Source: a virus. From it: DNA of 31,135 nucleotides. Below, piece by piece: positions 6,847 to 28,251 of this stretch. A program made the position numbers and the translations under genes. The notes beneath the pieces are model-generated. The model saw only the letters and a list, made by a program, of their open reading frames with translations, made no database searches and was not told the origin of the DNA. Each line of letters starts with the position of its first letter. The first letter of the stretch is position 1. The stretch covers positions 1-31,135 of the IMG/VR virus record IMGVR_UViG_3300025809_000005. One strand, 5' to 3'.

Positions 6847-7467
6847 TTATTTTTTAATGTTTGCAATTCTTGCGAATACTGTGTCTCTAGTAGACTGTGG
6901 TCTGTTTTGACCGAAAGTTAATTTTTTAGATTTTGTTTCTCCTTCAGGACTATGTCTTAATGGAGTAGCAGCCGGTGTAGAAGATAATTCTTCTTTTACC
7001 TTTGCCTCAACTTCAGCTTGAGTACTTAACTGTGTTCTTAATTCAGCAATTTCAGATTGTAGTCTTTCAATTTCACTAAAGAATGTTTCCTTAGATACTG
7101 ATTCAACAATCTTCTTAGGTGTACTTGCTTCAGCCTCAGCTTCTACTTCTACTTCAGCTTCTTCAGTAGCTTCTTCTTCAGGAGCTTCTTCTGCTGATTT
7201 CATTTCTTTTATGATACCTTCATTTTCTACTACTAGGATCATTCCATCTTCTAAAGAATATTCGCCAACAGGTAAAGCAATTCGATCTTCTTCTGTTACG
7301 ATAAATACTTCAGCTTCCGGTTCGAATACCTCTGCTTCAATGATAGTACCATTCTCTAGGGTCATTTGAGCTAGTTTGATTTCCTGTACGGTTTCCTGTA
7401 CATCCTCTGATAACTCAATCCCTAGTACGCTTTTAATTTCTTTTAGCATTTCTAATGGATTTTTCAT
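6847..7467 (-). CDS. Scaffolding protein
   Basis: 206 aa, immediately upstream of the MCP. Acidic E/A-rich low-complexity core (EEAPEEEATEEAEVEVEAEAEAS) and a coiled-coil segment (ERLQSEIAELRTQL). Confidence 0.55.
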   Translation of the reverse strand: MKNPLEMLKEIKSVLGIELSEDVQETVQEIKLAQMTLENGTIIEAEVFEPEAEVFIVTEEDRIALPVGEYSLEDGMILVVENEGIIKEMKSAEEAPEEEATEEAEVEVEAEAEASTPKKIVESVSKETFFSEIERLQSEIAELRTQLSTQAEVEAKVKEELSSTPAATPLRHSPEGETKSKKLTFGQNRPQSTRDTVFARIANIKK

Positions 7468-7505
7468 ATGTATATATAACGGTTAATAAATATTATTTTG
7501 TATTT
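7468..7505 (-). promoter_or_regulatory. Late-class promoter B
   Basis: Minus strand: AAATACAAAATAATATTTATTAACCGTTATATATACAT then ATG (7467). The N13 spacing is conserved. Confidence 0.55.
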
Positions 7506-8107: not shown

Positions 8108-8729
8108 AGCTTTGTGTTTTTTGTATAAAGTATATTATATCCCATATCTTAGCAGTACCTCCTATAGGTGTAACTTTTACAAAAGATCCATTGTCTACAA
8201 AGTTTTGGTCTGCATAGTATTGAAATACTTGATGGAACTCGTGAGCAACGTCATTACCTTTAGGGAACGATATATCAACCCCTACTCTTTCGTAAGGTGT
8301 TCCGTTCTCTGCATCTAACTGTAATCTCATATAAGTCTGATTAGCATTTGCACTTGAACACTTAAAAGCAATAGTCAATACATAAACATCATTCAAATTA
8401 TCAGCTAACACTCTTTTGGTTATGCCATTGTAGTAATCAATACCTGAGTAGCTTCTGTAAATATTAGCAGCATTGTTAGGTAAAGTAATTTCTACGCCAT
8501 CTGCTAAATTTAATTTACTAGCTGAGGTATATTGATCGTCATCGTATCTAGTCCACCCTATTCCTGTTCCTACGCCTGCTTGAGGGTATAATTTAACCCA
8601 TTGTCCTTTATAAACAGTCCATACTCCGGATTCAGTAGTAACATACGCCCCTTCTTCAATATTATATTGATTCCTTACTGCGTCTGTATCTACGTCTACT
8701 TGTACTTTGTATGAAGTGTTTTTAGTCAT
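8100..8729 (-). CDS. Hypothetical virion protein (beta-rich)
   Basis: 209 aa between the protease and scaffold genes. No recognisable motif. Confidence 0.5.
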   Translation of the reverse strand: MTKNTSYKVQVDVDTDAVRNQYNIEEGAYVTTESGVWTVYKGQWVKLYPQAGVGTGIGWTRYDDDQYTSASKLNLADGVEITLPNNAANIYRSYSGIDYYNGITKRVLADNLNDVYVLTIAFKCSSANANQTYMRLQLDAENGTPYERVGVDISFPKGNDVAHEFHQVFQYYADQNFVDNGSFVKVTPIGGTAKIWDIIYFIQKTQSYA

Positions 8730-9330
8730 TAAATAATGATTTTAGCTTTTCAATAGTTTTAGTAGCCTCTTGCTCCTCTTTTGACATCCCTACTGATTCG
8801 TTAGGTCGCTCCATTTTATCTGCAAAGTACCCTTCGATCGAAAATCCTTTTACTTTACCGGTCTTAACGTAATCATTCCAAACTTCATCGTTATTTACTT
8901 TAACAGCTCCCATCCACGTTCCAATCGGTACATTCATTCCGTATTTACGTGATTTATCGTGTACTTCATCTTCTACTATCCACGATTCTACTAAAGACAA
9001 TCCTTTTAATTCGTATTGATGCTCCATCGTCGAATTATTTTGATTGCCTGCCATTAAATACATTTGAGAGGCTTTTAAGACAGTATCTTTTGAAAAATAT
9101 ATATAGTATTCATCTTCAGCGTTTCGTCTATATATCGGCTTGTTAGGTACTAATAAAGCACCCATTAATAATCTTTTTTCTTTTGATATTTCCGCTAGCT
9201 TGATTTCTTCAGCACTTAATGCAACAAAATCTTCTTCAATAGCTGGGTTCTCAACAACAGATATAGCCTCTATTCCGGTCATATCTTGTTCTTCATCGAT
9301 TACTAATTCTATTATCTTAAAATTACTCAT
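8722..9330 (-). CDS. XkdF-like putative prohead serine protease (S78_2-like)
   Basis: 202 aa. The pattern GIEAISVVENPAIEEDFVAL ... LLVPNKPIYR ... VESWIV ... GTWMGAVKV ... GFSIEGYF resembles PBSX XkdF-family proteins. Head-module position. Confidence 0.5.
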   Translation of the reverse strand: MSNFKIIELVIDEEQDMTGIEAISVVENPAIEEDFVALSAEEIKLAEISKEKRLLMGALLVPNKPIYRRNAEDEYYIYFSKDTVLKASQMYLMAGNQNNSTMEHQYELKGLSLVESWIVEDEVHDKSRKYGMNVPIGTWMGAVKVNNDEVWNDYVKTGKVKGFSIEGYFADKMERPNESVGMSKEEQEATKTIEKLKSLFND

Positions 9331-9366
9331 ATCTATATAACGAATTAAATTTTAAATTTTGTATTT
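9331..9366 (-). promoter_or_regulatory. Late-class promoter C
   Basis: Minus strand: AAATACAAAATTTAAAATTTAATTCGTTATATAGAT then ATG (9330). It begins at the stop codon of the upstream gene. Confidence 0.55.
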
Positions 9367-11192
9367 TATATGGATGCACTTGATACAATATTCCTTTCAA
9401 GACTTTGAGCAGTTGTAACATCGGATGCTACTACATAGGCTTTCATTGGTTGTTTAGTTTGTCCCGCTATAGTTTCAGCTAATTGATTTGATCCTGACGT
9501 TCCTACTACATTAAAACTTGGAGCTTGTGGGGCGGGTACTGATACGCCTCCGCCACCTCTAGATCCTTTAGCAAAACTAGGTGCTTTAGGTTCAGGTGTT
9601 GCTGTTATTTTTTTAACATTTGCTATACCTCCTGCTATAACTGCTGCGGCACTAATAAAGTTAAATGGTGGGGGTGCTGATGCTAGAGCAACGTTCGCAC
9701 CGGCATAGGTATCTCTAATCGCTTGTACTAATGCTATACCTTTTCCAAACTTAGAGTTTTCCCCTACTATGCTTGCTAAGTTTCCTAATGCGTCTGTCAC
9801 TAATTGTTGTTTAGCTTTCTGTACGTCTTTTTCTAAAGTAATTTTCTTTTGATCACTTTCCTGCTGAAATGCTAACAATTCATTCTCTGCATCTATAAAC
9901 GCCTGAGTACCTTGCTGATATTGAGACATTTTATTCAACAAACGTTCTTCTTCAATCTTAGCTTCTTCTTCTGCTACTAATTTTAACGCTTGTAATCTTA
10001 GGTAATCTCCTTCTATTTGCTCTGCTACAAATTGCTGCGATAATATATTCCTTTCAGCATCTGCATCTGTAATCGATTGTGTAAGATCTAACTGCTCTTT
10101 TTGTAGTGCAATAGAGTTTGATATTTGTTCTGACTGAAAGCCTGTTATTTGAGCTTCTATTGCTTTCTTTTCGTTTAATGCTTCCTGTAGGGCAACTTGG
10201 TTTTCAATACTATTGTTTTTCTGTAAGTCAAGCTGTGCTAATTGGATAGCTATATCGGCATTGGCTAACATCTCAGTCTTTTGTTTTTCTAAAACATCTG
10301 CTAGATCATTATTAGCTTTGATCCTTTCAGCTAAGTTTTTAGTGTCGTCGTCTCTTATTTGTCTTAACTGTTCTGCCTGTCGATCGTATTCTTCAATCAA
10401 TCCCTGATTGGCTACTTTTGCTAATTCAGCGTCCTTACGTAATTGTACAAGTGTTTTAGAATTTTCTAACGCTGCTGTTACGCTTACTTTACTAAGATTT
10501 TCTGCGGCTATCGTTCCAATGTTAGATATTTCTCCGACTGCTTCACTAAAATTATCGTATATAGCTTTACCGGATTCTACTACTCCATCTGCTACACTAT
10601 ATATATCATTTTTAGTTTCAATTATATCGGCTCTCAGTTGTTTAATTTTCTCCTGATCCTTCCCACCGAAAAAAGAATCTTCCCAAGCTAATTGTGCTTG
10701 CTGTAGTCCTAATTTAATTCCAAAGAAGGCAAACTTAATTGGTGCTAGTCCAATATTAAGTACATTCTTCAATACAGTAAGTAATGCGTCAAAGTTTTCT
10801 GTAGATGCGGCTACTGCTTTGTAGGTGTCTACTAACGCTGTCGATACTTGGTTTAATATCTGAGATAAAAACTCAAATGCTATAGACATTGCATCCGCTA
10901 CAGGTTGGTTAGTCTTTAACACATCGAATAATGCACTTGCAGCTTTTACAATTAATCCGAATCCTGCTGCTTTTAGCGCAAGTCCTACTCCCTTAATTCC
11001 CTTACCTATAGATTTTATAGATTTGAATATTCCTTTGCTCTGTTTCTCTACATTATCTAAGCTCTCAGATGTTTGCTCTGACGTTTTAGTAACTTCTTTA
11101 TTAAGAGACTTAATAGCATCTACGACATCCTGTAAATTAGCTTCAGACTTTCCGGTCTTTACTTCTAACTCTATTGTCTTTTGCTGTGCCAT
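9366..11192 (-). CDS. Tape-measure-like / internal virion protein
   Basis: 608 aa. Long coiled coils, hydrophobic glycine-zipper-like segments (GVGLALKAAGFGLIVKAASALF; APPPFNFISAAAVIAGGIANV) and a Gly-rich tract (SRGGGGVSVPAP). Confidence 0.5.
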   Translation of the reverse strand: MAQQKTIELEVKTGKSEANLQDVVDAIKSLNKEVTKTSEQTSESLDNVEKQSKGIFKSIKSIGKGIKGVGLALKAAGFGLIVKAASALFDVLKTNQPVADAMSIAFEFLSQILNQVSTALVDTYKAVAASTENFDALLTVLKNVLNIGLAPIKFAFFGIKLGLQQAQLAWEDSFFGGKDQEKIKQLRADIIETKNDIYSVADGVVESGKAIYDNFSEAVGEISNIGTIAAENLSKVSVTAALENSKTLVQLRKDAELAKVANQGLIEEYDRQAEQLRQIRDDDTKNLAERIKANNDLADVLEKQKTEMLANADIAIQLAQLDLQKNNSIENQVALQEALNEKKAIEAQITGFQSEQISNSIALQKEQLDLTQSITDADAERNILSQQFVAEQIEGDYLRLQALKLVAEEEAKIEEERLLNKMSQYQQGTQAFIDAENELLAFQQESDQKKITLEKDVQKAKQQLVTDALGNLASIVGENSKFGKGIALVQAIRDTYAGANVALASAPPPFNFISAAAVIAGGIANVKKITATPEPKAPSFAKGSRGGGGVSVPAPQAPSFNVVGTSGSNQLAETIAGQTKQPMKAYVVASDVTTAQSLERNIVSSASI

Positions 11193-11323
11193 TTGATTTC
11201 TGTTTTAATTTTATTATATGTTTCTTTAAAGCTACTAGGTAGGTAATATTTGCCTTGTGCTATTCTTATATTTTCTGTTTCTCCTTTAACGACTGTTAGT
11301 ATATCGAATATGCTCTTTAACAT
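11168..11323 (-). CDS. Small ORF (51 aa), not in the ORF track
   Basis: Hand translation: MLKSIFDILTVVKGETENIRIAQGKYYLPSSFKETYNKIKTEIKWHSKRQ. TAATG overlap with the upstream gene and a 25-nt overlap with the next gene. It fills a 130-nt gap. Confidence 0.35.
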
Positions 11324-13389
11324 TAAAATAATTTATTGATTAATTCTAACTTGGTGTCTCCGGTTATAAGATTGACGTTTATATTGTTTATTATGTAATC
11401 CTGATCGAATACAGTAAACGTGTCATTTAGATTGTATTTTAATAATATCTTACTAGGTAATTTAGCTGTGTATTTATAGATCCTTGCTCTACGATCGAAT
11501 ACTTGCTCTATATACGTCTTATAAAAATTATTAAATAACGAATTGTTGTTTACAATAGCACTACTTCCTGATCTGTTATACTCGTCTATCTCAGCTCCAA
11601 AGTTTAACGATTGTGATTGATCTGCATTTATATTAGAAGGTCTGTTAAATGTAGTAATTTGACTATGAGTCCCACTTTTCCAACTGATTGGTGTCGCTGT
11701 AGTATCTTCACTTACATTAAAAAATAATAGAGGCTTCTCTACAATCGAGCTTACTTTATCAATATCTTCTATGCTAGAACCTTTGTAATCAACAAACCAT
11801 CCCCATCCAATATCTGTTAGCGAATCATTTGCTACATTAGTAATTCGTTCGTAAACTACTTTTTCAAAATCCACTTTTACTGTGTAATCTCCACCGTCAA
11901 ATTTTTCTCCACCGTCATACGTTAAGTTTCCGTACCCGGTACCTCCATTTATTTCGTTTGTCTTTTGAGCAAAGAAGGTTTTAGGTTCAGGAAAATCTAA
12001 ACTTATTTTTCTATACGGTATTGCTCGATCAATATCGTTGTTATTACGGTCTACGTATTTAGTTATATCGTATGTTATTCCGTCTGCATAAAATTCGTCT
12101 AACTTCTCTACGTATATTTTTCCATCCGGTAGTACGTATGCTGTTAGATTAAACAACTTGAATAAATTGGACATAAAGTCCATCACTTTCATATTAGGAA
12201 TATTGTCTGTAATAATTACTTGACTAACTATTGATTGATCTTCAGATCTATATACTCCTGCTTGGCTTAGAAATCCACTTTGATATGGATCATTATTCAC
12301 TATAAATTCTTCTACGCTCCATTGTGCATCGTAATCCGTAATACCCCCGCTTGTTTCTATTGTAACGTGAATATCATAAATTCCATTGCCGTCAAAATTA
12401 TACTGTTTGCTAAATGATCCGGTTTGACCTGAAACTGTATCTAATAAGTAACTTCTGTTATAAACTTTGACTGTATATTCTCCGCTTCCAATAGGTACTA
12501 TGCTTAATGTAGCTTGATAGTCTTTTGACTCATATCCAAAATCATAGGTTTGAAGTATCATTCTACTATTATTGTCTATAAATTCTACAAAATCATTTCC
12601 ACTATCAAATAAAAATCCTTCTACATTAGATACTTGAGTAGTCCCTGCTGCTGCTGTTATTTGTCCTTTGCTTCTATGCAACCACATAAATAATTCATTA
12701 AACATAGCACTATCAAAGAAATCACTTTGAAAGGTTAGTCCGTACTCAGTTCCAATAGCATCGATAATAGATTTTACTTTGAGTGCTGGTTTAAGATCTC
12801 TATAATCTAGTCCCCTGTCGCTTTTAGCTGCGTCGTAATAAAGGTTTCCATCTTCTGTAGTGGTTCCTGTACTATCGTAATATAATCGCTTTGTATGCGA
12901 GATTAATGGATATACAATATTTCCACTTTCTAAGCTAGATTGGAATCCTACTTTTACTTGAGCAGCGTCGTATAAGTGATCATATTCACTTAAAGTACTT
13001 ACATCTGATAGTTTATCTTCTCCAAACAATTCAGGTAACGTCACTGTGCTACCAAAAAAAGTAATTTTATATACTTCCGGTAAATTGTCTTTCATTTTTA
13101 CTCCATCTACTCGGATCTTACCATTCTTAAATGTAGCGTGGTTTATTTCGATCAATCCGTCTAGTTTTTTTCTAGCGTCTATTGAATTACCTTCAGCTAT
13201 AGTCGTATTGTAGTAATGCTTTAATACTTTGTTGTTATTTTTAGAAGCGGGTATCGTAAAGGATTGACTAAAGTCTGTAAATATTTTACCTATATCCCTA
13301 GAATTTTGAATAGACGAGGTAACATTGATCGTTTCGTCTGAGAACAGATCCATCCTTTCGCCTTGTATATACAACTGAATTATATTCAT
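11323..13389 (-). CDS. Large tail/baseplate structural protein
   Basis: 688 aa. Start overlaps the stop of the upstream structural ORF. Beta-rich. No catalytic motif recognised. Confidence 0.45.
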   Translation of the reverse strand: MNIIQLYIQGERMDLFSDETINVTSSIQNSRDIGKIFTDFSQSFTIPASKNNNKVLKHYYNTTIAEGNSIDARKKLDGLIEINHATFKNGKIRVDGVKMKDNLPEVYKITFFGSTVTLPELFGEDKLSDVSTLSEYDHLYDAAQVKVGFQSSLESGNIVYPLISHTKRLYYDSTGTTTEDGNLYYDAAKSDRGLDYRDLKPALKVKSIIDAIGTEYGLTFQSDFFDSAMFNELFMWLHRSKGQITAAAGTTQVSNVEGFLFDSGNDFVEFIDNNSRMILQTYDFGYESKDYQATLSIVPIGSGEYTVKVYNRSYLLDTVSGQTGSFSKQYNFDGNGIYDIHVTIETSGGITDYDAQWSVEEFIVNNDPYQSGFLSQAGVYRSEDQSIVSQVIITDNIPNMKVMDFMSNLFKLFNLTAYVLPDGKIYVEKLDEFYADGITYDITKYVDRNNNDIDRAIPYRKISLDFPEPKTFFAQKTNEINGGTGYGNLTYDGGEKFDGGDYTVKVDFEKVVYERITNVANDSLTDIGWGWFVDYKGSSIEDIDKVSSIVEKPLLFFNVSEDTTATPISWKSGTHSQITTFNRPSNINADQSQSLNFGAEIDEYNRSGSSAIVNNNSLFNNFYKTYIEQVFDRRARIYKYTAKLPSKILLKYNLNDTFTVFDQDYIINNINVNLITGDTKLELINKLF

Positions 13390-14474
13390 TACCTAATTAA
13401 GTTTACTTCGTTAAATGCGTAATCAAAATCTACTGTGAAATTAATTAACTTGTCGTTTAGGCTAGTTTTATATTCCAACGTCGATGTTTTAGGCACTATA
13501 GGTGTTACTTCTCCGCCTTCGTGAATCCACGCGTGTTCCGTTAATAATAACTGCTGTATTACTTCGTTAAATTGCTCGTCTACGAATCCGGTGTTTAGTG
13601 TTAATGACTTTTGAGTTTTAAAGTTATATGGGATCTTAGTAGCTTCATTAAGCGAATAGTTTACTACGCTAGTTGTTTGTAACGTATTCTCTTTGTATTC
13701 TTCTTTACTGATCGAAACATTGTCAGTACGTTTTTTGAAGAAATAAAGGTCTTGTACTACTCCGAATTTATTTACAAATGCTACTTTGTAAGGCGTGTAC
13801 TTAGGTTCGCATATACAATATACATCCAATTCAATTACTTTTCCTGTACCGGTTGTTAGTATTACTTTGTTATAAGGAGACGATGGAGATATTGGAGAAA
13901 CTACTACATTACTGCTAGTGTTTTTTAAGAAAGTCATATCTGCTTTTAATACTGTAGTGTCAGCTTTATAGTCTACAGTATCTACAGTTATTGGTGTAAC
14001 ATTATTACCGAAAGTAGATTCAGATACTAATGTTGCTCCATTGTAATATTGAACTTTGAATACACCGCTGTCTCCGGTCAATATAGGTATGTTTAATTGC
14101 TCATCGCAGTTATGATATATCTTAGTATTACTTTGCAATAGATCTTTGCTTAATTCAGGGTTAATTGCATCTTGAAAATATCCATAACCTGTGAAAGCTA
14201 TTCCTTCCCCAACAAGATCATTGTCTGTACTATCGTCATCGTATGTTCTTACTACTTCCCATCGTACCCAAGCATTTTGCTGTATATTATAATAATCGCC
14301 TGTATAAATTATTTCTACATAATCTTTTACTAGCTCTCCAATCTCAAATACTATAATATCTTGACTTGCTACTTTTTCTTTGTACAAAGTATAAGTTGGG
14401 TTTGTCGGTTCGTTGGTTCCGTATTCCCCTGTATATACCCAAAGTCTTAAAGTTGCACTTACTAAATTTGCCAT
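13389..14474 (-). CDS. Tail structural protein
   Basis: 361 aa in the tail block, coupled by overlap to the 688-aa gene. Confidence 0.4.
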   Translation of the reverse strand: MANLVSATLRLWVYTGEYGTNEPTNPTYTLYKEKVASQDIIVFEIGELVKDYVEIIYTGDYYNIQQNAWVRWEVVRTYDDDSTDNDLVGEGIAFTGYGYFQDAINPELSKDLLQSNTKIYHNCDEQLNIPILTGDSGVFKVQYYNGATLVSESTFGNNVTPITVDTVDYKADTTVLKADMTFLKNTSSNVVVSPISPSSPYNKVILTTGTGKVIELDVYCICEPKYTPYKVAFVNKFGVVQDLYFFKKRTDNVSISKEEYKENTLQTTSVVNYSLNEATKIPYNFKTQKSLTLNTGFVDEQFNEVIQQLLLTEHAWIHEGGEVTPIVPKTSTLEYKTSLNDKLINFTVDFDYAFNEVNLIR

Positions 14475-14484
14475 ATTCTATTTT

Positions 14485-15564
14485 TTAAGGACAAGTTAAA
14501 CTAAATCCTAAGTCGTTAATTGCTTGTATTATTAAATCTCTATAGTAGTCAGGTTCACTAGAGTATGATACTCCTGCTCTAACATCGTACACAAATTTAT
14601 ACTGTCCTGTTAAATCTGCTAAATAAGTTGAGCCTCCATATACTCCTGTTCCACTTTCTATAGTTTCTAGCATCTGTTTAAAAGCAGGGAATCCTACTAC
14701 ATCAAATACAACAGGTGTTACATAGTCAGAAGCATTTGTAGTTAATACATTTCTTAAATTAACTAAGTCGGTGCTTAATGCTATGTTTATACTGCCCGGA
14801 TTAAAAGAGCTTGTATTTGAGAAATATATAGATTGTGCCTCATCTTGAAAAATAAAGTTTATACAGTTAGTCGCACCTACTACATCAGGTTCAGATGCTG
14901 CTACTACAAAAGTCCTTTCATCAGACCAAGACCTTACTTTAACGTATTTGTCATATTCTGCTCCATCGTCATTGTAAAATTGTACTAAGCAAGATTTTAA
15001 ATTATTTGCTACCATTGATTGTAAAGGTGCCAATGTGGTATTCATAGATCCTGAACTATCAAACCAAATATTTATTTGTGTAGTTTGGTTAATTACAATA
15101 GGTGGTGCTGCGGGACAAGTAAAGTCTACTGTGTACTCGTCATTTATTAATGGAGCATCTACTACTAATTCTACTAATTCCGGTTGTGCTGTAGTCTTTT
15201 GAATCTCAACAAAATTACTTGCTTTTGTACTAGGATCTCCTGTAGCTATTTCTCCTATTGGTACTCCTGCATCTAATAAATCCTGATCGTACAAATCTAA
15301 CCCTATATAGTCAGTAGTGCTTTCGTTTCCATCCCACTTTAAAGTAAACTTAGCCGGTACTTCGCTACCGCTTATATCTACTCTAAAAGTTCCAACTTCA
15401 GGTGTTTCTACTTGATACGTTACAACTCCTACATCTGTAGCTACATTGTGAGTATCTCCACAAGCTAATGGAATAGTCTGAGGGGCAATAGGTGGTACAG
15501 GTGGTGTTGGGGTTCCTGCTTCTACTTCTAAATAGTAGGGACTTCTTACGTTTATCTTTTTCAT
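14485..15564 (-). CDS. Virion-module protein with C-terminal vWA-like domain (MIDAS DxSxS)
   Basis: 359 aa. Pro-rich linker (PTPPVPPIAPQ). From about residue 160: INIWFDSSGSMNTTL (DxSxS), later ERTF and NFIFQDEAQ, at the spacing expected for the vWA Thr and Asp. Confidence 0.45.
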   Translation of the reverse strand: MKKINVRSPYYLEVEAGTPTPPVPPIAPQTIPLACGDTHNVATDVGVVTYQVETPEVGTFRVDISGSEVPAKFTLKWDGNESTTDYIGLDLYDQDLLDAGVPIGEIATGDPSTKASNFVEIQKTTAQPELVELVVDAPLINDEYTVDFTCPAAPPIVINQTTQINIWFDSSGSMNTTLAPLQSMVANNLKSCLVQFYNDDGAEYDKYVKVRSWSDERTFVVAASEPDVVGATNCINFIFQDEAQSIYFSNTSSFNPGSINIALSTDLVNLRNVLTTNASDYVTPVVFDVVGFPAFKQMLETIESGTGVYGGSTYLADLTGQYKFVYDVRAGVSYSSEPDYYRDLIIQAINDLGFSLTCP

Positions 15565-16094
15565 TATGTAGTAAATTCAAACAGATCGTCAATATCTAAG
15601 CCAAACTGTTGTATTAATTCATCCGGTAAATTGTCAAACGCTTTTTCAAATGGTTTTGTAAAAAAGAATGACGGTTTAATTCCTTTGTTGTATATGCTAT
15701 TTTGTAATATGAATCCTATTGTTCTATAATTGCCTTTTTTATATTTTCCTTTTTCGTCTCTTAATCTTATATTTCGTTTCTTTGCCCACTCCATTAAAGG
15801 CTTCATCGGTGGTTTCTTATTTGAGTATTTAAACGGAGAATTACGAGCTTCTATGTAACTACTTGTCTTACCTTGTACTCCCTGATCAACAAACTGTCCG
15901 TAATCCATCATATAAAATTCTAGTCCGAAACTGTTAGGGTTTACCTTCAATTCATATCCTAGACTTCCATAGAGATCACTTGAGACGTTTTTTTTCTTTT
16001 TAGTTAAGTTTGTCTTAGCTTGTTGTATTACGTACTTAGCAAACTTGTTTAATGCCTCCTTTGTATTTTTAAGATCAGCAGACATTAATATCAT
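15564..16094 (-). CDS. HK97-gp10-like neck / tail-completion protein
   Basis: 176 aa. The overall pattern (AKYVIQQAKTNL ... GSLGYEL ... DYGQFVDQGVQG) resembles gp10-family head-tail joining proteins. Tentative. Confidence 0.35.
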   Translation of the reverse strand: MILMSADLKNTKEALNKFAKYVIQQAKTNLTKKKKNVSSDLYGSLGYELKVNPNSFGLEFYMMDYGQFVDQGVQGKTSSYIEARNSPFKYSNKKPPMKPLMEWAKKRNIRLRDEKGKYKKGNYRTIGFILQNSIYNKGIKPSFFFTKPFEKAFDNLPDELIQQFGLDIDDLFEFTT

Positions 16095-16545
16095 TTTGAA
16101 TTATTACATCAAATGTTGCTGTCCACCCAGCCACTTGACTTTCGAATCGATCCATAAACGGTTCCAATGTTACTGCTCCTTCTACTTGATACAAGTCTCT
16201 AAATAACTGCCCGATCCTTAATTTTTGTACTAGCTTGTTTAATACTGCTAACTGAGTATTTAAAACATCCTGCTCATTATCATTTCCAACAAATATATCT
16301 GCTGTAGGTTCTTTTGATTGATCAACAATATCCATCGCTAGTATGCTAATGTTAAACGATAGTGTATTTTCTGAAGATGTTACGTTGTTTACAATCATAT
16401 GAGACAAAGGGAATATCGTCTGCTTATTTAGATCTACTTCTGTTATGTCTCCGGTTGTTACTGTATTTACATTGACGTCGTCTAATAACGTTTCCTTTAT
16501 TTTGTCAGTCAATACATAAAACCCTCTTATTCCTGTTTTGCTCAT
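16075..16545 (-). CDS. Neck / tail terminator candidate
   Basis: 156 aa, adjacent and overlapping the gp10-like gene. No diagnostic motif. Confidence 0.3.
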   Translation of the reverse strand: MSKTGIRGFYVLTDKIKETLLDDVNVNTVTTGDITEVDLNKQTIFPLSHMIVNNVTSSENTLSFNISILAMDIVDQSKEPTADIFVGNDNEQDVLNTQLAVLNKLVQKLRIGQLFRDLYQVEGAVTLEPFMDRFESQVAGWTATFDVIIQNDINVC

Positions 16546-16627
16546 TGCATTTTATTTTTTATTCGTCTGCTCTCCAATTCGTTTTTCTCTTTTTCAAAGG
16601 ATAACATTAAAAAGCACTTATGTACGC

Positions 16628-17278
16628 TTAGTTTAGTGATATCTTCAAATCGTCTAATATCTCCTTGAGCGAGTGCGTAAATTGATTGATACCAACCCCA
16701 TTTTGCTCCGAACTGAGATACTGCACTAAATTGCTCTCCTGCTCCTCCTTCAAATAATTCATCATAGCTTGAGACAAGTCGATCCCTAAATGATAAAAAA
16801 AAATAATAGAACTTATAACTGCATCTAAAGGCATCTCCCGCATTATCTCTGCATCGTCAGGAGTATAGTCCACTATAGAGTATTTGTCTCCGTATTCAGC
16901 CTCTATTGGTCTGTAGAGTACTGCCATAGCTCTGTGCATATTCTCCCAATCTCCTAAGAAGGCATCCAAGTCTACATACTCTCCTAACGATATATCGTCT
17001 AGCTTAGGTATAAATCCGTACTGCTTTCCGTTTAATCGAAACTTTCTTACTAGGTTTGGTTTCTGCTCTAATAGATCTACAATGATACTACAGATCGAAT
17101 CAACGTCTGCAAATTTCATTTTTAACGTGTCAGTCATTTTTATTCCACAGAATATTTCTAACATTTTAGACGCTAAGAACATATCGTCGGTATTGTTTTC
17201 CTGTATCTTTAAATACTTTTGATACTGCCCTAATGTTAGCTCAGATAAATTATCCGGTATAATAACTTCAACTTTCAT
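16628..17278 (-). CDS. Acidic hypothetical protein, first gene of the long late tail operon
   Basis: 216 aa. The late promoter abuts its ATG. Acidic and helical (chaperone-like composition). Confidence 0.5.
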   Translation of the reverse strand: MKVEVIIPDNLSELTLGQYQKYLKIQENNTDDMFLASKMLEIFCGIKMTDTLKMKFADVDSICSIIVDLLEQKPNLVRKFRLNGKQYGFIPKLDDISLGEYVDLDAFLGDWENMHRAMAVLYRPIEAEYGDKYSIVDYTPDDAEIMREMPLDAVISSIIFFYHLGIDLSQAMMNYLKEEQESNLVQYLSSEQNGVGINQFTHSLKEILDDLKISLN

Positions 17279-17314
17279 ATATATATAACGAATTTAATTA
17301 ACGATTTTAGAAAT
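17279..17314 (-). promoter_or_regulatory. Late-class promoter D
   Basis: Minus strand: ATTTCTAAAATCGTTAATTAAATTCGTTATATATAT then ATG (17278). Sits directly downstream of a terminator. Confidence 0.5.
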
Positions 17315-17322
17315 AAAGGTAC

Positions 17323-17349
17323 AAAAAAAAAGCACCCATTTCTGAGTGC
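17323..17349 (-). terminator. Intrinsic terminator closing the small-gene island
   Basis: Minus strand: GCACTC-AGAAAT-GGGTGC hairpin followed by T9. Confidence 0.7.
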
Positions 17350-17376
17350 CTCTTTGCTATAAACATAAACTAACTA

Positions 17377-18983: not shown

Positions 18984-20138
18984 TTATCTTACTGCATACG
19001 ATCCATAGTTAGGTCTTGACAGCTTGTTCACTATAGAGTATCTCAGGCTATCTAGTGCGTGATTATATGCGTCTATAGGTTTATTAGTTAATTGTCCGTT
19101 TTTATCTTCTATGTACTTGTAATTGCGTAATTCTTTAATTGTATTGATACTATCTTCTGTAACGTGTAGTCTGTAACGACGTACCATATCAATACCTGCA
19201 TTGATTGCTCCCTTCCACGTTGGTTTTACATTCCATCCCATCCGGTGTATTTCTTCAATACTCTTAGGTTCGGCACTATCTGCGAATATTTCGTCTCTAC
19301 GATCTAGTCCTAGCCTTTGAAATTCATTTGCTATATCCTGATTGGTCATACCTGTACGATAGATATGCTCCTTCACATACATATTGTCTCCTGCTATAAA
19401 CGTCTCTACTAAACTTGTTGGATCATTAGAGAAACCAAAGTCTAGTCCAAAAGCTATTCTCTTAGCCTCTAGTGGCACTTCTTTAATTACTTTGAAGTTG
19501 TATATCAAACTACGTGATTGTCCACGTTCTCCTAACCCATAAACTTTCCAATAATTTTCGTCTATATCCTTTAGCCTTTCGATTTCGTCCTTAATTATGT
19601 TACTAAGGAACGGATTGTCTTTATATGTAGTTTGGTAAAACTCTACGTCGTCTCTTGTTAGTACTTGGTCATATATCCAATGGAACTCGTCTGAGGGGTT
19701 GTAATCAATTATAATACGTTCGCTTGTTCTGAATATTAACTGCTGCCAATCTTCATAGTTTAATTCGTTTGCTTCGTTTATAAATAACAAATCCCTTTTA
19801 CGACCTCTAATCTTCTGCGGTTCGTCTAGGGATATAAATTCTACTCTATTGCCGTTTAGTAAATATTCATTGGAACTCTTGCTGTGATATATTTCATTGT
19901 AAAGATCATAGCCTTTTAATATATCAAAGAAGTCTCGCATTACTGTACCTCTAACAGCGGGGAATGTTTTTCTACAAATGGTTACTGTTTTGTCTTTATG
20001 CGTATTGCAGTATGACATTATAATCCATATCAGTATATTGTAAGTTTTACCGGATCTTGTTCCACCCTGTTCTACTACAATTTTTTTTTTAGATTTCTCT
20101 AGGTGTCGAAAGACTTTATTCGTCGCTACTTCCTTCAT
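18984..20138 (-). CDS. terL: Terminase large subunit (PBSX/XtmB-like)
   Basis: 384 aa. Walker A (GGTRSGKTYN), Walker B-like LLFINEANE, and a C-terminal nuclease-like region (GLDFGFSNDPT ... DSAEP ... HALDSLRY). Confidence 0.85.
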   Translation of the reverse strand: MKEVATNKVFRHLEKSKKKIVVEQGGTRSGKTYNILIWIIMSYCNTHKDKTVTICRKTFPAVRGTVMRDFFDILKGYDLYNEIYHSKSSNEYLLNGNRVEFISLDEPQKIRGRKRDLLFINEANELNYEDWQQLIFRTSERIIIDYNPSDEFHWIYDQVLTRDDVEFYQTTYKDNPFLSNIIKDEIERLKDIDENYWKVYGLGERGQSRSLIYNFKVIKEVPLEAKRIAFGLDFGFSNDPTSLVETFIAGDNMYVKEHIYRTGMTNQDIANEFQRLGLDRRDEIFADSAEPKSIEEIHRMGWNVKPTWKGAINAGIDMVRRYRLHVTEDSINTIKELRNYKYIEDKNGQLTNKPIDAYNHALDSLRYSIVNKLSRPNYGSYAVR

Positions 20139-20469
20139 CTATTATTTTTACTTGGAATAATCTCTCGCCTTCTGCTCCGGTAATTTCTTGCCTCTCAATA
20201 TAACCTCGTTTCTTACCCTTAGTCTTTAAATAGAAAATGGTAGCTGCTGTGCTACCTTCATTAATTTGTTTATGTATCTGACTTTCTACAAAGTCCAACG
20301 TGTAGTTTTCTACATCGTCTACTTCCTTTTTAAATTCAGGATCGTTTTGATAATATTTGTAAAATGTAGTACGACTGATCCCTACTTTGTTACAAGCAGT
20401 ACTAACTACCCCCAACGATTGTTCGAGGGCAGAAAGTATTTGCTTTTTTATGTGTTCACTTTTGTCCAT
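20116..20469 (-). CDS. terS: Terminase small subunit (HTH)
   Basis: 117 aa. HTH segment ACNKVGISRTTFYKYYQNDPEFKKEV. Overlaps terL by 23 nt. Confidence 0.65.
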   Translation of the reverse strand: MDKSEHIKKQILSALEQSLGVVSTACNKVGISRTTFYKYYQNDPEFKKEVDDVENYTLDFVESQIHKQINEGSTAATIFYLKTKGKKRGYIERQEITGAEGERLFQVKIIDEGSSDE

Positions 20470-21113: not shown

Positions 21114-21851
21114 TTATATTATTATTTTTTGTGTCCTGTCTATATTTAGTTTTAAGCTATACTTGTTTTCACGTTCAGTAATCTTTATATGCTTGCCCCA
21201 TTTGTCTTTTAGGAATTGTATTTCTTTGTTTACCGAGTCCTGATTTCTGTACAAGCTATTCCCCCCGACGTTATTGTCTCGTTTACATCCAAAAGAAAAT
21301 CTATTGTCTACCCATACAATCCGGTCTTTAAGTAAACATTGCAAGCTATAGTCTGCGTCTACTTTCGTTTTATTTATCTCAGTAAATTTGTATTTACGTC
21401 CAATGATACCTACAATCGTTCCTGTCCACGTCTTTAGATTAAACGGTTGTGTGTGATCATATTTTCTTATATCGCCTTGTACTTGGTTAAAACTAAACAT
21501 AGAGGCTCCTGCTTCTAAACAATTACTAGCACAATTATCGATAATCAAATCGATCATATCCACGTCTGTAATCTTAAACGCTTTTATATTTAACAAAGAG
21601 AAAAAACAATCGATGTCATCGTCAAACATTACGAGTATTTCGTCTTTATAATAGTCAAGTACCCAATTACGTACAGCTCCTAGACCTTTAATACTATCCG
21701 GTATCTCTACAATATCATTTGCATTGTGTACTACTGTCTTATATTTATCTACTTCGGATGTCGGTACTACTAGATCAAAATCCTTTAACACGTTATGAGT
21801 GCATATAGTGGACGATCTCCCCCTACTTAATATGATCTTCTTAATTTTCAT
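21114..21851 (-). CDS. GT-A-like glycosyltransferase candidate (DxD)
   Basis: 245 aa. IKGLGAVRNWVLDYYKDEILVMFDDDID resembles the GT-A G-x-ArN ... DxD core. Start overlaps the ParB gene by 11 nt. Confidence 0.4.
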   Translation of the reverse strand: MKIKKIILSRGRSSTICTHNVLKDFDLVVPTSEVDKYKTVVHNANDIVEIPDSIKGLGAVRNWVLDYYKDEILVMFDDDIDCFFSLLNIKAFKITDVDMIDLIIDNCASNCLEAGASMFSFNQVQGDIRKYDHTQPFNLKTWTGTIVGIIGRKYKFTEINKTKVDADYSLQCLLKDRIVWVDNRFSFGCKRDNNVGGNSLYRNQDSVNKEIQFLKDKWGKHIKITERENKYSLKLNIDRTQKIII

Positions 21852-22449
21852 TTTTAAGCAATTTAAGGAGTACGTCAGAGCTTATAACACGTCCTAGTCC
21901 TAGTTTCTTTGTTTTAGGACTGAGTGATACTCTTTGTTTTTCTAATCCTAATTGCGATATTGCCTGTACCCAATCGTTACTATTGTTGAATATGAATACT
22001 AAATAATCGTGGTGTTCATTAAATTTGAGATCCATATCCCTAACAATTTCCCCTTTTTCTTTTTCATCTACTTTATCAGATTCTTCAAAGTACAATACGT
22101 TTAGTCCATAGTCTGCTAACGTGTCTAGCTCATACTCCTGACTTAATACATCGTAATCCCAATTACCAAAGCTAACGTTGTCTTTAATAACAAATTCTTT
22201 TTTTTCTTCTTCAGTCCACCCTTCCATATCGTCTACCCATATCTCAGTATGACCTAAGTGCTTATGAGCTTTCAATCTCATATTCCCACCCTGTACTATC
22301 ATATTTTCGTCTACAATAATTGGTCTTACTTCCATCATTTTTGGAAACTCCTTAATACTGTTTACTAGCTTCTCAAATTGAAATCCTTTTATCGTTCTAG
22401 GATTGTCCGGATTCTCTTTTATTTGATCTATAGGTACTAAACGCTTCAT
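21841..22449 (-). CDS. ParB/Srx N-terminal-domain protein
   Basis: 202 aa. VPIDQIKENPDNPRTI ... LVNSIKEF ... PIIVDENMIVQGGNMRLKAHKHLG is a ParBc pattern. The following FVIKDNVSFGNWDYDVL resembles the linker seen in ParB-methylase fusions. Confidence 0.65.
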   Translation of the reverse strand: MKRLVPIDQIKENPDNPRTIKGFQFEKLVNSIKEFPKMMEVRPIIVDENMIVQGGNMRLKAHKHLGHTEIWVDDMEGWTEEEKKEFVIKDNVSFGNWDYDVLSQEYELDTLADYGLNVLYFEESDKVDEKEKGEIVRDMDLKFNEHHDYLVFIFNNSNDWVQAISQLGLEKQRVSLSPKTKKLGLGRVISSDVLLKLLKNEN

Positions 22450-22461
22450 ATATATAACGAT
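22450..22461 (-). promoter_or_regulatory. Late-type CGTTATATAT box abutting the ParB ATG (partial motif)
   Basis: Minus strand: TAAATCGTTATATAT-ATG. The upstream ATACAAAAT element is absent at N13. Confidence 0.25.
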
Positions 22462-22899: not shown

Positions 22900-23646
22900 T
22901 TATAAATTTTTGTAAAATTCTACTACTGTGTTTTTAAACCAATAGGCAAAACTTTCGTCTCCATCCGGTAACGGATCTTTATTGACGCTTAAATGATTTG
23001 AAGATGCTAATTGAAATGCTTTTAACATTCCGTATCTATCTTCTTTGTAATTCATTATTAATTTTGCTGCGTGTCTTAATACTTGTGCAGGCATCCTTCT
23101 TTTTCCATATCTGCTAACTAAAGTCGAAATAGTTTCGCATAGATCGTCTGAAAATTCTTTATTGATAAATTTTAAATTTCCTGATTTTATAGACGGATGT
23201 CCCCTTTCAATTCCATCGTAACAAGTAGCTACAACGCCATTTGATAACGTCTTTTGGTAATTAATCATTTGATTACGTAAGTGCATATACTCCGGTATCT
23301 TTTTATCTGACCAAGATTTTACATAATCATACAGCGTCCATTGTTTGTTATGAGCGTTCAAATCGATAATAAAAGACTGTATATCTTCAAAGTCGCTATC
23401 GATCCAATCAATTACAGAACAAGGTACTTGAGCAATTTTATGCAATTTCAACGCCTGTACTCGGTGCTGTCCTTCTACTGCATAATATTTGTTTTTCTTT
23501 TTCACTACTTTAATAGTGTCTGCAAATCCGTTTTCGGATATTAGGTTGTACATCTTCTGTACGTGGCTTTCAGAAACTTCTCGGTTCCCTTCTACAAAGT
23601 TAATTGAAGTAATTGGTAGTACTTCGGTGTGTGATACATTGATCAT
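22900..23646 (-). CDS. ParB/Srx-fold protein with DGQHR-type motif (EGQHR)
   Basis: 248 aa. LPITSINFVEGNREVSESHVQKMYNLISENGF ... YYAVEGQHRVQALKL, followed by a helical C-terminal domain. Confidence 0.55.
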   Translation of the reverse strand: MINVSHTEVLPITSINFVEGNREVSESHVQKMYNLISENGFADTIKVVKKKNKYYAVEGQHRVQALKLHKIAQVPCSVIDWIDSDFEDIQSFIIDLNAHNKQWTLYDYVKSWSDKKIPEYMHLRNQMINYQKTLSNGVVATCYDGIERGHPSIKSGNLKFINKEFSDDLCETISTLVSRYGKRRMPAQVLRHAAKLIMNYKEDRYGMLKAFQLASSNHLSVNKDPLPDGDESFAYWFKNTVVEFYKNL

Positions 23647-23713
23647 AATATTTGAGGCTCTTAACCCCTTGTTTTGATACGCCTACTCTATTTGCTTTTC
23701 GGCTGCCGCAATT

Positions 23714-24487
23714 TTATAAAGTATCTTCGAGATAGTAGCTGTCTACGTCTAGCCCATCCACAAAAAATGCTTCGTATGTTTCTATAGCTTTCGCTACAGT
23801 TTCTTCTCCTGAGAAATAAAATTCTTCTGAGCAATGATATATTCCAATATCTAAACTGCTTTTGTCTAATGCAATAAAAGTAAAGTCTTTAGGATCTACA
23901 TTAAATAGATTACAGTATATATAACATTGAGCGTTATACAGATATTTTTTTGCACTATATCGAAATGCTCGGATGTCAGTTGTTGTTTTTAAATCGACAA
24001 TAGTAGTCCCGCATAATACATCTGCTTTCCCTCTGAATGGATAACCCATTATATTCCCTATGCTAGGTACTTCGAATTGACAATTAGTTATGTAACTTTT
24101 AGCAGTTTCGTTTTTATAAAAAGCGTCTGCTAATCTTTCTGCGTCTCTTTTTTCTTTTTTAGTGAATACTTTGCCGTGTTCTTCTTTTGCTAATTTATAC
24201 GCTTTAGAATTTTTAGATTCAACGTCTACAAATATTTGAGATGCAAATACATCCGGTTCTAGTATTGCTGTGTGAAATAGCCATCCGTCTCTTAATGCTT
24301 GACTTTCTGCTGATCCGTATTGAGTAACGTATTTATAAGTCTTAGGACTTGACGTTAATAATTTAATTGAGCTACTGCTTAATGCTGTCTTGCTTAGGTA
24401 ACCATAGTAAAATTCATCGGACATCATATTGTCTAATAATTCTTTTTTGTCCCATTCCTTGCTGTCTAATAATTTAATTGTCTCCAT
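23714..24487 (-). CDS. RecE-like PD-(D/E)XK exonuclease (DUF3799-like)
   Basis: 257 aa. GWLFHTAILEPDVF, GKADVLCGTTIVDLKTT and YNAQCYIY match the exodeoxyribonuclease VIII PDDEXK-like pattern. Confidence 0.6.
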   Translation of the reverse strand: METIKLLDSKEWDKKELLDNMMSDEFYYGYLSKTALSSSSIKLLTSSPKTYKYVTQYGSAESQALRDGWLFHTAILEPDVFASQIFVDVESKNSKAYKLAKEEHGKVFTKKEKRDAERLADAFYKNETAKSYITNCQFEVPSIGNIMGYPFRGKADVLCGTTIVDLKTTTDIRAFRYSAKKYLYNAQCYIYCNLFNVDPKDFTFIALDKSSLDIGIYHCSEEFYFSGEETVAKAIETYEAFFVDGLDVDSYYLEDTL

Positions 24488-26510: not shown

Positions 26511-26604
26511 TTTCTCCTTTGTTTCGTTTTGAATACTTTTTTTCGTTTAGTTTCCATCCGGTAATTGGATGCACTCCTTTTTGTATTAATTCTTTTAGTG
26601 TCAT
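26449..26604 (-). CDS. Small ORF a (51 aa), not in the track
   Basis: Hand translation: MTLKELIQKGVHPITGWKLNEKKYSKRNKGENEIRKYYRENYDLDGDKMAY. ATGA overlap with the sigma-factor stop. Confidence 0.35.
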   Translation of the reverse strand: MTLKELIQKGVHPITGWKLNEKKYSKRNKGENEIRKYYRENYDLDGDKMAY

Positions 26605-27095
26605 TTAATAATACTCTTTAAATGTTTCTTTACTTTCCTGTACGTATTGTACAAAGAATAATAACTGATCGTTGTTTTATCGCTGAGGTTTTGAAAACTC
26701 TCCCCGCTATCTATTAATTCAAATACTTTCCTGTCATACCAATATAAACTTTCTAACTCTTTGTTAAACTTCTCATATAGTTTGTCATAATCGACAATTA
26801 TTTCGGATCTATAGTCTGCTTTTAATTTCTCAGACAAATCCCCCCAAGATACTACGTCGTACAGACTTTCCTTTTTTTTTAGATCTAAAAATAAATTTCT
26901 TAAAGCTCTATAAACATAATAATAATTTATTTCAGTCTCATTGTACATTACATTGGTTCCTGCTTTGACTTGTTTGTCTAGCTTAATGTACATTTCCATT
27001 ACAATATCTTCTGCTGTATCGGGATTTACTCCAAACGATTCAACAATATCGCACCAATCTTTATGCTTTTTATAAAGTAATTCTAATACTTCCAT
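26601..27095 (-). CDS. ECF-like sigma-70 family factor
   Basis: 164 aa. Region-2-like AEDIVMEMYIKL ... YVYRALRNLFLDLKKKE. Region-4 HTH-like SFQNLSDKTTISYYSLYNTYRKVKKHLK. Confidence 0.55.
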   Translation of the reverse strand: MEVLELLYKKHKDWCDIVESFGVNPDTAEDIVMEMYIKLDKQVKAGTNVMYNETEINYYYVYRALRNLFLDLKKKESLYDVVSWGDLSEKLKADYRSEIIVDYDKLYEKFNKELESLYWYDRKVFELIDSGESFQNLSDKTTISYYSLYNTYRKVKKHLKSIIK

Positions 27096-27274: not shown

Positions 27275-28189
27275 TTAAAAAGGTAATTTTACTTGCTCTT
27301 TTGAAGCATATTGTATTAAATTTTTATGGTTTACTTCAAATCCAACGTTATTAATAATACTTCTTAATCTTATTGGATCTTCTAAACTTGTTGGTCTACC
27401 TCCTGTATCTATGTCTTTTACTTTTCTTACGTGAATATGTGAATACATCCAATCAGTAGGATGCTGTATATATCTATGTATTACAATAAAATCGTCAGCA
27501 CGATTGACAAATTTACCCCCGCCTTCTACATCTGACGCCATTGGTGGTATTGGATGTCCGGCATAGTGTTCAGTATTGCCGTGTTTTTTCCTTAACGCTT
27601 CAGTCGCTGCGTGAGTATTAAGCCATATACTAATATTATTCTTTTTGCAAAATATTCTCATTTCACTTGTTGCTTGATAATCGTATTCGTGTCCGCTTAA
27701 TCCCCTTAATACATCTTTGTCCTTCATTAAACTATTATACGGATCGATCATAAGTCCATCGTAATCCCAAGCATCCTTAACGTATTGGGCAAGTTCTAAG
27801 ACACGTTTATATGTATAAAGGTCGTTTGGATCTACAAATTTAAAATGATCGTTTATATAGCTTATTTTTGCGTTAAAATCATCTTCTTCAATCTTATTAA
27901 TTGGTTTGCCTTCTATAAATTCGACAAGTTTTCTAATTAATGAGTAAGGTTCGTTTTCTGAGCTAAATACAAGCCATCTAGTTTTATGTTTAATTGTGTA
28001 CAATAACATTAAATATAATATTACTGTTGTTTTTCCTACGTTAGCGTGTCCTAGAATAACATTAAAGTTCCCGTGCTTAAATCTGAAATGTTCGTCTATT
28101 TCTTTTATTCCTAATTTTAATCCTTCTTTTATTTGTCCGGATCTTACTTTCTTTAATTTGTTTAATTGATCTTCAAAATTTATAAGCAT
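27275..28189 (-). CDS. DnaB_C / RecA-fold replicative helicase-like ATPase
   Basis: 304 aa. Walker A (ILGHANVGKTTVIL), Walker B-like YDGLMIDPYN, and later WLNTHA. C-terminus ...EQVKLPF. Confidence 0.6.
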   Translation of the reverse strand: MLINFEDQLNKLKKVRSGQIKEGLKLGIKEIDEHFRFKHGNFNVILGHANVGKTTVILYLMLLYTIKHKTRWLVFSSENEPYSLIRKLVEFIEGKPINKIEEDDFNAKISYINDHFKFVDPNDLYTYKRVLELAQYVKDAWDYDGLMIDPYNSLMKDKDVLRGLSGHEYDYQATSEMRIFCKKNNISIWLNTHAATEALRKKHGNTEHYAGHPIPPMASDVEGGGKFVNRADDFIVIHRYIQHPTDWMYSHIHVRKVKDIDTGGRPTSLEDPIRLRSIINNVGFEVNHKNLIQYASKEQVKLPF

Positions 28190-28215
28190 TGTCTGTCTGT
28201 TTTAGTCTAAGGTAT

Positions 28216-28244
28216 AAAAAAAGGGGATAAGTTTCCCTACCCCC
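28216..28244 (-). terminator. Intrinsic terminator after the SSB-like gene
   Basis: Minus strand: GGGGGTAGG-GAAA-CTTATCCCC (9 bp with two G.U pairs and a GNRA loop) followed by T7. Confidence 0.7.
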
Positions 28245-28251
28245 TATATTT

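Follow-up and report, generated by a model that had tools for sequence, protein, structure and literature searches.

A bipartite motif locked to the start codons of structural genes in a marine siphophage clade: candidate late promoters for a phage-encoded sigma factor

What are the paired sequence blocks that stand directly ahead of structural genes in the viral contig IMGVR_UViG_3300025809_000005, what reads them, and where would the resulting messages begin? The stretch analyzed here (the window, 31,135 bp, 33.5% G+C) holds every substantial open reading frame (ORF) on its minus strand, and its annotation reads as a siphophage-like genome. An earlier note described four intergenic sites, one of them at 17279, with two conserved blocks at a fixed spacing just upstream of an ATG, and proposed that they form a late promoter class giving leaderless mRNAs. 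Our analysis supports this answer: the motif is probably a late promoter, read by a sigma factor that the phage itself encodes, and its mRNAs would be leaderless or nearly so. The motif with its statistics, conservation, and geometry, the terminators, and the sigma fold are shown directly; we infer the promoter role, the reader, the late timing, and the position of the transcription start (+1), and the timing is deduced from the functions of the downstream genes.

All four sites lie on the minus strand and read exactly as the earlier note gave them: ATTTCTAAAAT-cgttaattaaatt-CGTTATATAtat-ATG at 17279-17314, AAATACAAAAT-ttaaaatttaatt-CGTTATATAgat-ATG at 9331-9366, AAATACAAAAT-aatatttattaac-CGTTATATAtacat-ATG at 7468-7505, and TAATACAAAAT-gtagattttattt-CGTTATATAtat-ATG at 5192-5227. 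At the first, P1 (17279-17314), the −35-like box TTCTAAAAT (17304-17312) and the −10-like box CGTTATATA (17282-17290) flank a spacer at 17291-17303, and the ATG of ORF 16628-17278 is at 17278, 12 nt past the C of CGT. P2 (9331-9364) consists of ATACAAAAT (9356-9364), a spacer (9343-9355), and CGTTATATA (9334-9342), with the ATG of the protease gene 8722-9330 at 9330, again 12 nt past the C. P3 (7468-7503; ATACAAAAT at 7495-7503, spacer at 7482-7494, CGTTATATA at 7473-7481) precedes a gene in the scaffold position (ORF 6847-7467, ATG at 7467, 14 nt past the C), with the capsid-like gene next. P4 (5192-5225; ATACAAAAT at 5217-5225, spacer at 5204-5216, CGTTATATA at 5195-5203) precedes ORF 4844-5191 (ATG at 5191, 12 nt past the C), which overlaps the portal gene. 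The claimed 13-nt spacer is present in 4/4 full sites. There is also the partial fifth copy, CGTTATATAt-ATG (22450-22459, minus strand), ahead of the ParB-like ORF 21841-22449; here CGTTATATA (22451-22459) lies 10 nt before the ATG and the −35 region is degenerate (AATAAAGTT). Counted from the C of CGT, the A of the ATG is therefore 12, 14, 12, 12, and 10 nt away in order of rising coordinate, matching the description.

The assertion that the four sites head structural operons holds for the annotated XkdF-type protease gene (8722-9330), for the annotated gene of a capsid-like virion structural protein (5896-6831), and for the annotated portal (3057-4847) and tail-fibre-like (1242-2267) genes, all on the minus strand. 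The "tail block" label for 9366-17278 has a weak tape-measure match as its sole basis. The intrinsic terminator placed directly 5′ of P1 is indeed found at 17323-17350 on the minus strand (GGCACUC...GGGUGC followed by U9; −18 kcal/mol, z = −4.0, with 0/200 shuffles folding as well); it closes the upstream transcription unit and abuts P1. A second intrinsic terminator (5232-5263, minus strand; −15.6 kcal/mol, z = −3.3) lies 5′ of P4. At P2 and P3 the preceding ORF adjoins, with no terminator between. The gap from terminator to ATG is about 45 nt and is taken up by the motif, so that, whatever the register, a leader of more than a few nucleotides is hard to fit.

Could such an arrangement be chance in AT-rich DNA? 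The window has five copies of CGTTATATA, every one on the gene strand; shuffles that preserve dinucleotide content average 0.79 copies and never (0/100) give as many as five. Each copy contains CGTT and stops 1-5 nt short of the ATG of an ORF of 115-216 aa, and four of the five have (A)TACAAAAT or TTCTAAAAT exactly 13 nt upstream. If one mismatch is allowed, the count (18 matches, 17.4 expected) is that of the background, and the signal thus resides in the exact copies and their placement. An unsupervised search of the 50 nt upstream of all 50 ORFs ranked CGTTATAT as the most enriched 8-mer (p = 1.6e-6), and all five of its gene-strand occurrences fall inside those upstream windows. A position weight matrix anchored on CAAA recovered three of the window sites and missed P1; it was set aside because the anchor makes the C obligatory.

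The arrangement recurs in uncultured relatives. An exact scan of IMG/VR for TACAAAAT-N13-CGTTATATA, in which both boxes are fixed by the query, returned at least 138 sites on at least 119 viral contigs; among the matches listed, 124 have an ATG 3-7 nt after the 9-mer and about 10 appear to be chance matches inside ORFs. The peptides downstream belong to a few orthologous groups (MKIVELILD, MKSTEMLN, and MKHLTTSTD/MIVFNT), namely the genes behind P2, P3, and P4. A motif-independent set was built from 80 loci fetched via the portal protein, with orthologs of three motif-bearing genes located by tblastn. The resulting 95 distinct upstream regions were aligned on the C of CAAA, an anchor that fixes only those four bases. 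Counted from this C, the leading bases at +19 to +26 are C (0.68), G (0.66), T (0.63), T (0.98), A (0.99), T (0.99), A (0.99), and T (0.93), and single spacer positions carry just 0.1-0.4 bit. In 81/95 regions the ATG begins at +31, the 12-nt distance from box to ATG is seen in 85%, and 96% have a T directly before the ATG. As a family the sites follow the consensus A-T-[A/G]-C-A-A-A-A-T, N13, [C/T][G/T][T/A]TATAT[A/T], NN, T, ATG. In these portal-retrieved relatives the spacer sequence drifts, but the two boxes stay in place with their 13-nt spacing and their 12-nt distance to the ATG. In a sister clade TT or CT stands in the place of CG, and the rest of the motif is unchanged. This corrects the earlier description: the most invariant element is TATAT (93-99%), not CG, which is kept in only 66-68%.

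Individual sites behave in the same manner. Orthologs of the gene behind P1 keep nAAAAT-N13-CGTTATATA-N3-ATG in 13 relatives, the P2 motif is kept before the protease ortholog in about 100, and the sole ortholog found for the ParB site (on contig L018) likewise has CGTTATATA-N3-ATG. The 80 loci fetched via the sigma protein described below contain 54 gene-strand instances of CGTTATA followed closely by an ATG, versus two on the opposite strand. A T-run of the terminator type lies just 5′ of the motif in 53/55 distinct regions upstream of the pre-portal gene. The N-terminal peptides (MKIVELILD, MKSTEMLN, MKHLTTSTD) are conserved from residue 1, with third-position variation in their codons. At least 600 portal relatives and at least 549 sigma relatives were confirmed in IMG/VR. 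By comparison, 596 Gb of prokaryotic genomes contain three matches to the full motif plus N3-ATG, which we judged to be chance: all are on short contigs of Bacteroidota metagenome-assembled genomes, 0/3 precede an ORF, and none is near homologs of window proteins. With boxes and spacing kept in hundreds of relatives, on one strand and directly after terminators, the motif has the character of a conserved promoter class, as had been proposed.

Does a cultured phage share it? The closest cultured relative is Nonlabens (Persicivirga) phage P12024S/L of the genus Inhavirus, whose portal protein is 39% identical; this protein alone reached a cultured relative, and 20 kb of the window compared with cultured phages by megablast gave no match. 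From this relationship, the host is most likely a marine member of the Flavobacteriaceae. At six P12024S gene starts (179, 3031, 5412, 23961, 25201, and 26802) a CGTTA box stands exactly 12 nt ahead of the ATG, and at a seventh (21280) the distance is 11 nt. Five of the six read AAAACAAA-N12/13-CGTTAATA-N4-ATG; the protease ortholog (179) reads CGTTACTATAGT-ATG, without a clear −35 box. The string CGTTAAT-N5-ATG occurs five times, with 0.16 expected. In this phage the −35/−10 separation is 16-17 nt and the −35 element reads AAAAC-AAA. The four bases between box and ATG vary among the P12024S sites and relative to the window phage while the distance is constant, and what is conserved is thus how far the ATG lies from the box. 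The same CGTTAAT appears at the start of the P1 spacer (17295-17301, minus strand), 13 nt upstream of CGTTATATA, where it may be coincidental, or else a remnant box or an alternative one.

What would read such a motif? The window encodes a putative ECF-like (extracytoplasmic function) sigma factor of 164 aa at 26601-27095 on the minus strand, assigned from family profiles and predicted fold and built solely of sigma2 and sigma4 domains. Its gene follows the helicase gene 27275-28189 within the replication-gene unit. The ORF has 678 metagenome homologs, many named "sigma24 family" by JGI. Among 30 aligned family members, Sigma70_r2 is recognized in 18/30 (best E = 5.8e-6) and Sigma70_r4_2 in 7/30. 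Its protein aligns to P12024S gp33 (E = 3e-5), which is annotated with Sigma-70 region 2; tblastn of the ORF against cultured phages gave no match. The AlphaFold model has a pLDDT of 83 and is confident except in the linker, and its top Foldseek matches are all ECF sigmas: Mycobacterium tuberculosis (Mtb) sigma-H (5zx2, an initiation complex and the best match), sigma-L, Escherichia coli sigma-E, AlgU, and SigW. Identity in these alignments is only 14-19%; the C-terminal domain superimposes on 2h27, sigma-E region 4 on −35 DNA, with a TM score of 0.79. Together, the family profiles and the modeled fold mark the earlier note's candidate, ORF 26601-27095, as a two-domain sigma of group IV (ECF-like).

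Motif and sigma gene occur together on the window, on contigs L135, L171, L177, and L152, and in P12024S. The box also changes with the protein: CGTTATATA accompanies sigmas that are 45-100% identical, TTATATATT or CTATATATA those of 41-44%, and CGTTAATA the 21%-identical sigma of P12024S. This co-variation is qualitative only, as a loose two-block pattern run over sigma-bearing loci was too noisy in AT-rich DNA.

How well does the geometry suit an ECF promoter, and where does it place +1? The architecture is bipartite in the ECF manner, with 13 nt between the 9-mers at four sites. The ECF-like shape suggested at the outset is upheld by the CGT core, the two boxes, and the sigma2 plus sigma4 candidate, whereas the separation of "about 16 nt" is not: the C of TAC and that of CGT lie 18 nt apart. 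Sigma-H promoters carry GGAAYA at −34 to −29 and G-11 T-10 T-9, where T-9 is the flipped "master" base (PMC6411747). With the GTT of CGTTATATA set on this numbering, the near-invariant T (0.98) becomes −9 and +1 becomes the A of the ATG in the 12-nt class. The −35 C then falls at −31 in the window clade and at −30 in P12024S, an exact sigma-H match. ECF promoters have 16-18 bp spacers and prefer a pyrimidine at −1 and a purine at +1, and adenine starts are enriched among predicted ECF promoters of leaderless mRNAs in Actinobacteria (PMC7776599). The T found before the ATG in 96% of sites agrees with this rule. In computational work, leaderless genes are recognized from a −10-like signal some 12 bp ahead of the start codon (PMC3160421), and the 12-nt distance in 85% of the regions, together with the T at −1, matches this computational proxy. 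The sigma-H register and the T at −1 thus speak for the leaderless proposal.

The proposed sequence of events is as follows. The phage sigma would be made from the early/replication gene unit and would join the host core RNA polymerase to read the motif. Its region 4 would contact the −35-like box (A)T[A/G]CAAAAT and its region 2 the −10-like box CGTTATAT, with the rigid spacer between them. The ATG stands 12 nt past the C of CGT, and its A, or a base 1-2 nt away, would be the transcription start. With the promoter locked to the start codon in this way, the first cistron of each late operon should be leaderless. The first genes of the 16628-17278 unit, the protease block, the scaffold-capsid unit, and the pre-portal-portal-fibre unit would be translated from leaderless or nearly leaderless messages, and later genes of each operon by the ordinary A-rich, Shine-Dalgarno-free initiation of Bacteroidota.

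Several observations weigh against this reading. The −35 core in the window clade is TAC or TGC followed by AAAAT, where the canonical core is AAC, and the spacing is one base longer than for sigma-H. The −35 boxes of P1 and of the copy before the ParB-like gene are weak and lack the C. The near-invariant TATAT (−9 to −5) reaches 4 nt before the ATG, beyond a typical ECF −10 element, and a start 6-9 nt past the whole 9-mer, as in phages 7-11 and phiEco32, would put +1 inside the ORF. Leaderless transcripts make up just 5.5% of mRNAs in Flavobacterium psychrophilum (PMC9723704), and the argument that a host independent of Shine-Dalgarno pairing fits leaderless messages fails in so far as such independence does not by itself predict them. 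No transcript-like contig starting at the predicted +1 was found in a contig-end look-up or in an exact-protein look-up of the scaffold-position gene, both of which gave only DNA contigs carrying upstream sequence. As for the sigma factor, ORF 26601-27095 alone is below threshold in Pfam and PHROGs, for which reason its identity was taken from the family alignment, a PDB profile search, and the predicted fold. Its sequence links to known sigmas are weak: the family profile searched against PDB sequences ranks region 2 of the ECF factors SigE and SigR first, with E = 0.02-0.04. No motif copy lies 5′ of the sigma gene (upstream of 27095) to serve as an autoregulatory site, and no anti-sigma factor was recognized among the neighboring ORFs scanned; both features are usual for ECF sigmas, though not universal.

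The question of register bears on the alternative that survives best, though we consider it unlikely: the motif would be a phage-sigma promoter with its +1 either upstream, giving a leader longer than 5 nt, or downstream, with a different true start codon. The extension of TATAT to 4 nt before the ATG would suit it, and phages 7-11 and phiEco32 start transcription 6-9 bp past their sigma-specific elements (PMC8948821). However, the −35 box, fixed spacer, and CGTT give an upstream +1 no space, and the 12-nt distance to the ATG is held, in P12024S as well, despite differing bases in between. The conservation of the N-terminal peptides from residue 1, with variation at third positions, opposes a different start codon, and T at −1 with A at +1 suits a start on the A of the ATG.

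Whether the phage sigma is the reader at all is the next point. In an alternative that we find quite improbable, a host sigma, either an ECF factor or sigma-A assisted by a phage activator, would read the promoter and the phage sigma-like protein would be otherwise employed. Flavobacteria do possess several ECF sigmas and a promoter class with CGT at −10, SM6 (PMC9723704), and the link between phage sigma and motif is one of co-occurrence and shape only. Yet the full motif is essentially absent from the 596 Gb of prokaryotic genomes, Flavobacteriaceae included, and the box variants differ between contigs with divergent phage sigmas. Nor do the sites contain the Bacteroidota sigma-A consensus TTG-N19-TAnnTTTG (PMC9723704): neither TAnnTTTG (−7) nor TTG (−33) is found at the four sites on the gene strand.

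An RNA-level role, in which the motif would lie at the ORF's 5′ edge inside a longer transcript and act there as a processing site or as an operator or enhancer of translation, is very improbable: the 3′ box does adjoin the start codon, and P2 and P3 follow the preceding ORF without a terminator, but the spacing is rigid around a spacer that is non-conserved, unstructured, and AT-rich, strong terminators stand directly 5′ at P1, P4, and the 53/55 pre-portal regions, the Rfam scan places no RNA family at the motif sites, and the geometry is that of ECF promoters to the nucleotide. Translational-repressor sites that abut a start codon exist, the T4 RegA operators being an example.

Three other candidates were rejected. 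A consensus scan for sigma-70-type promoters found none that explains the four sites, and its total count was below the shuffle expectation. A divergent plus-strand promoter has no plus-strand genes to serve, and the reverse complement is without a conserved TAnnTTTG. A phage RNA polymerase promoter would need its enzyme, and no polymerase-sized ORF exists in the window or in the complete P12024S genome.

Among known systems, the nearest in logic are the enterobacterial phages 7-11 and phiEco32. The late promoters of Salmonella phage 7-11, which depend on its own sigma gp47, read GTAAtg-N16-aCTA, and the phiEco32 promoters of the middle and late classes, which depend on gp36, read tAATGTAtA (PMC8948821). 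In these phages, as proposed here, a small phage sigma sends the host core polymerase to a phage-specific consensus before late structural genes; the sigma gene sits in the early/middle region, the consensus stands before late operons and is absent from host genomes, and sigma and consensus diverge jointly between related phages. Phage 7-11 also shares the bipartite promoter with fixed spacer, and gp47 likewise has neither autoregulation nor an anti-sigma partner. In contrast, neither the sigmas nor the consensus elements show a detectable sequence relation to those described here, 7-11 and phiEco32 infect Enterobacteria, and their mRNAs are leadered, with starts past the element, whereas the element described here is locked 12 nt before the ATG.

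Mtb sigma-H offers the closest structural parallel: this sigma likewise has two domains, its −10 element is CGTT/GTT, where an invariant T takes the "master" position, and a rigid spacer separates this element from an AC-containing −35 box. The P12024S version (AAAAC at −30 ... CGTT) overlays the sigma-H promoter base for base; the window clade differs in its TAC/TGC and one extra spacer base, and in the strongly conserved ATATA downstream of GTT. The leaderless genes of Actinobacteria and Deinococcus-Thermus (PMC3160421; ECF-driven ones, PMC7776599) resemble the present sites in placing the −10 about 12 nt before the ATG, initiating with adenine, and leaving no space for a ribosome-binding leader. 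Those, however, are host genes in phyla rich in leaderless mRNAs, whereas here an entire temporal class of phage genes would be leaderless within a host family at about 5.5%. F. psychrophilum SM6 promoters, attributed to ECF factors (PMC9723704), share the host family and the CGT hallmark. They drive leadered host regulon genes (type IX secretion and others), and the exact phage consensus is absent from host genomes. Many middle and late transcripts of Thermus phage P23-45 are reportedly leaderless, as Berdygulova and colleagues are said to have found in 2011, which would make them, like the class proposed here, a temporal class whose promoter placement deprives the messages of a leader; its promoters are said to have no −35 element and to be read by host sigma-A holoenzyme altered by phage proteins. 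Leaderless mRNAs are commonly used in the Thermus host phylum.

Phage sigmas that drive late genes are thus already known. The literature searched described no start-codon-locked late-promoter class like this one, and held nothing specific on the motif, on P12024S transcription, or on leaderless phage messages in Bacteroidota. The single-nucleotide lock between candidate promoter and start codon spans hundreds of uncultured marine Bacteroidota phages and the cultured genus Inhavirus. The broader claim, that a whole temporal gene class is obligately leaderless throughout a large, globally distributed clade of marine Flavobacteriaceae siphophages, we regard as doubtful and advance tentatively. 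If true, the phage sigma would set +1 on the A of the start codon, and the passage from leadered early messages (AGACAGACA) to leaderless late ones would be a translational switch as well; it could, for instance, favor initiation of the 70S type in late infection. The phylum has no Shine-Dalgarno pairing, and leaderless messages are otherwise rare in it. A natural set of strongly expressed leaderless messages would inform how translation starts without such pairing. The promoter and sigma pair could be used to annotate transcription units in much of the marine virome, and might supply a compact orthogonal pair for Flavobacteriia genetics. Exact transcription starts are predicted, and they are testable in the cultured pair P12024S and Nonlabens sp. 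IMCC12024.

A different upstream class serves the early/replication genes and the terminase unit. It precedes the minus-strand ORF starts at 18393, 18899, 21048, 25449, and 28189 and features a conserved AAGACAGACA-type leader, with AGACAGACA, that ends 0-3 nt before the ATG. At two sites (18958-18931 and 18447-18420) the leader is preceded by TTGATA-N16-TATATT. AGACAGAC occurs three times on the gene strand, each time upstream of an ORF, and sigma-bearing relatives have 30 gene-strand instances of AGACAGA followed closely by an ATG, versus 3 on the opposite strand. The annotated genes of the large and small terminase subunits (18984-20469, minus strand) belong to a unit headed by this class and are not behind the CGTTATATA motif; the packaging genes may follow a different expression schedule from the structural genes. 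The helicase/sigma unit begins about 29 nt past a terminator-like hairpin and T-run, gggggtagggaaacttatccccttttttt (28190-28251, minus strand), which leaves no space for a conventional promoter before it.

Some further features of the minus strand deserve mention. A terminator-like hairpin and U-run (5836-5870; −10.4 kcal/mol, z = −2.8) directly follows the capsid-like gene and would give a short, abundant scaffold-capsid transcript from P3. At 4848-4861, within the ORF that precedes the portal gene, GATTATATAgtaat-ATG resembles the −10 box 14 nt before the portal start, without a −35 box, and could be a weak internal promoter or chance. The upstream half of the genome includes, besides the ParB-like gene 21841-22449 behind the partial motif copy and the DnaB-like helicase gene 27275-28189 of the replication-gene unit, a second ParB-like gene (22900-23646) and an exonuclease-like gene (23714-24487). 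The gap between these last two holds a match to the DUF805b RNA motif RF02914 at 23680-23712 (Rfam; 40.3 bits, E = 2.8e-8, above the gathering score). Finally, a pure A/T low-complexity stretch, ataatatatataatataatataataatatataataaataataatatatataatat, lies at about 30056-30143, 5′ of ORF 29828-30055.

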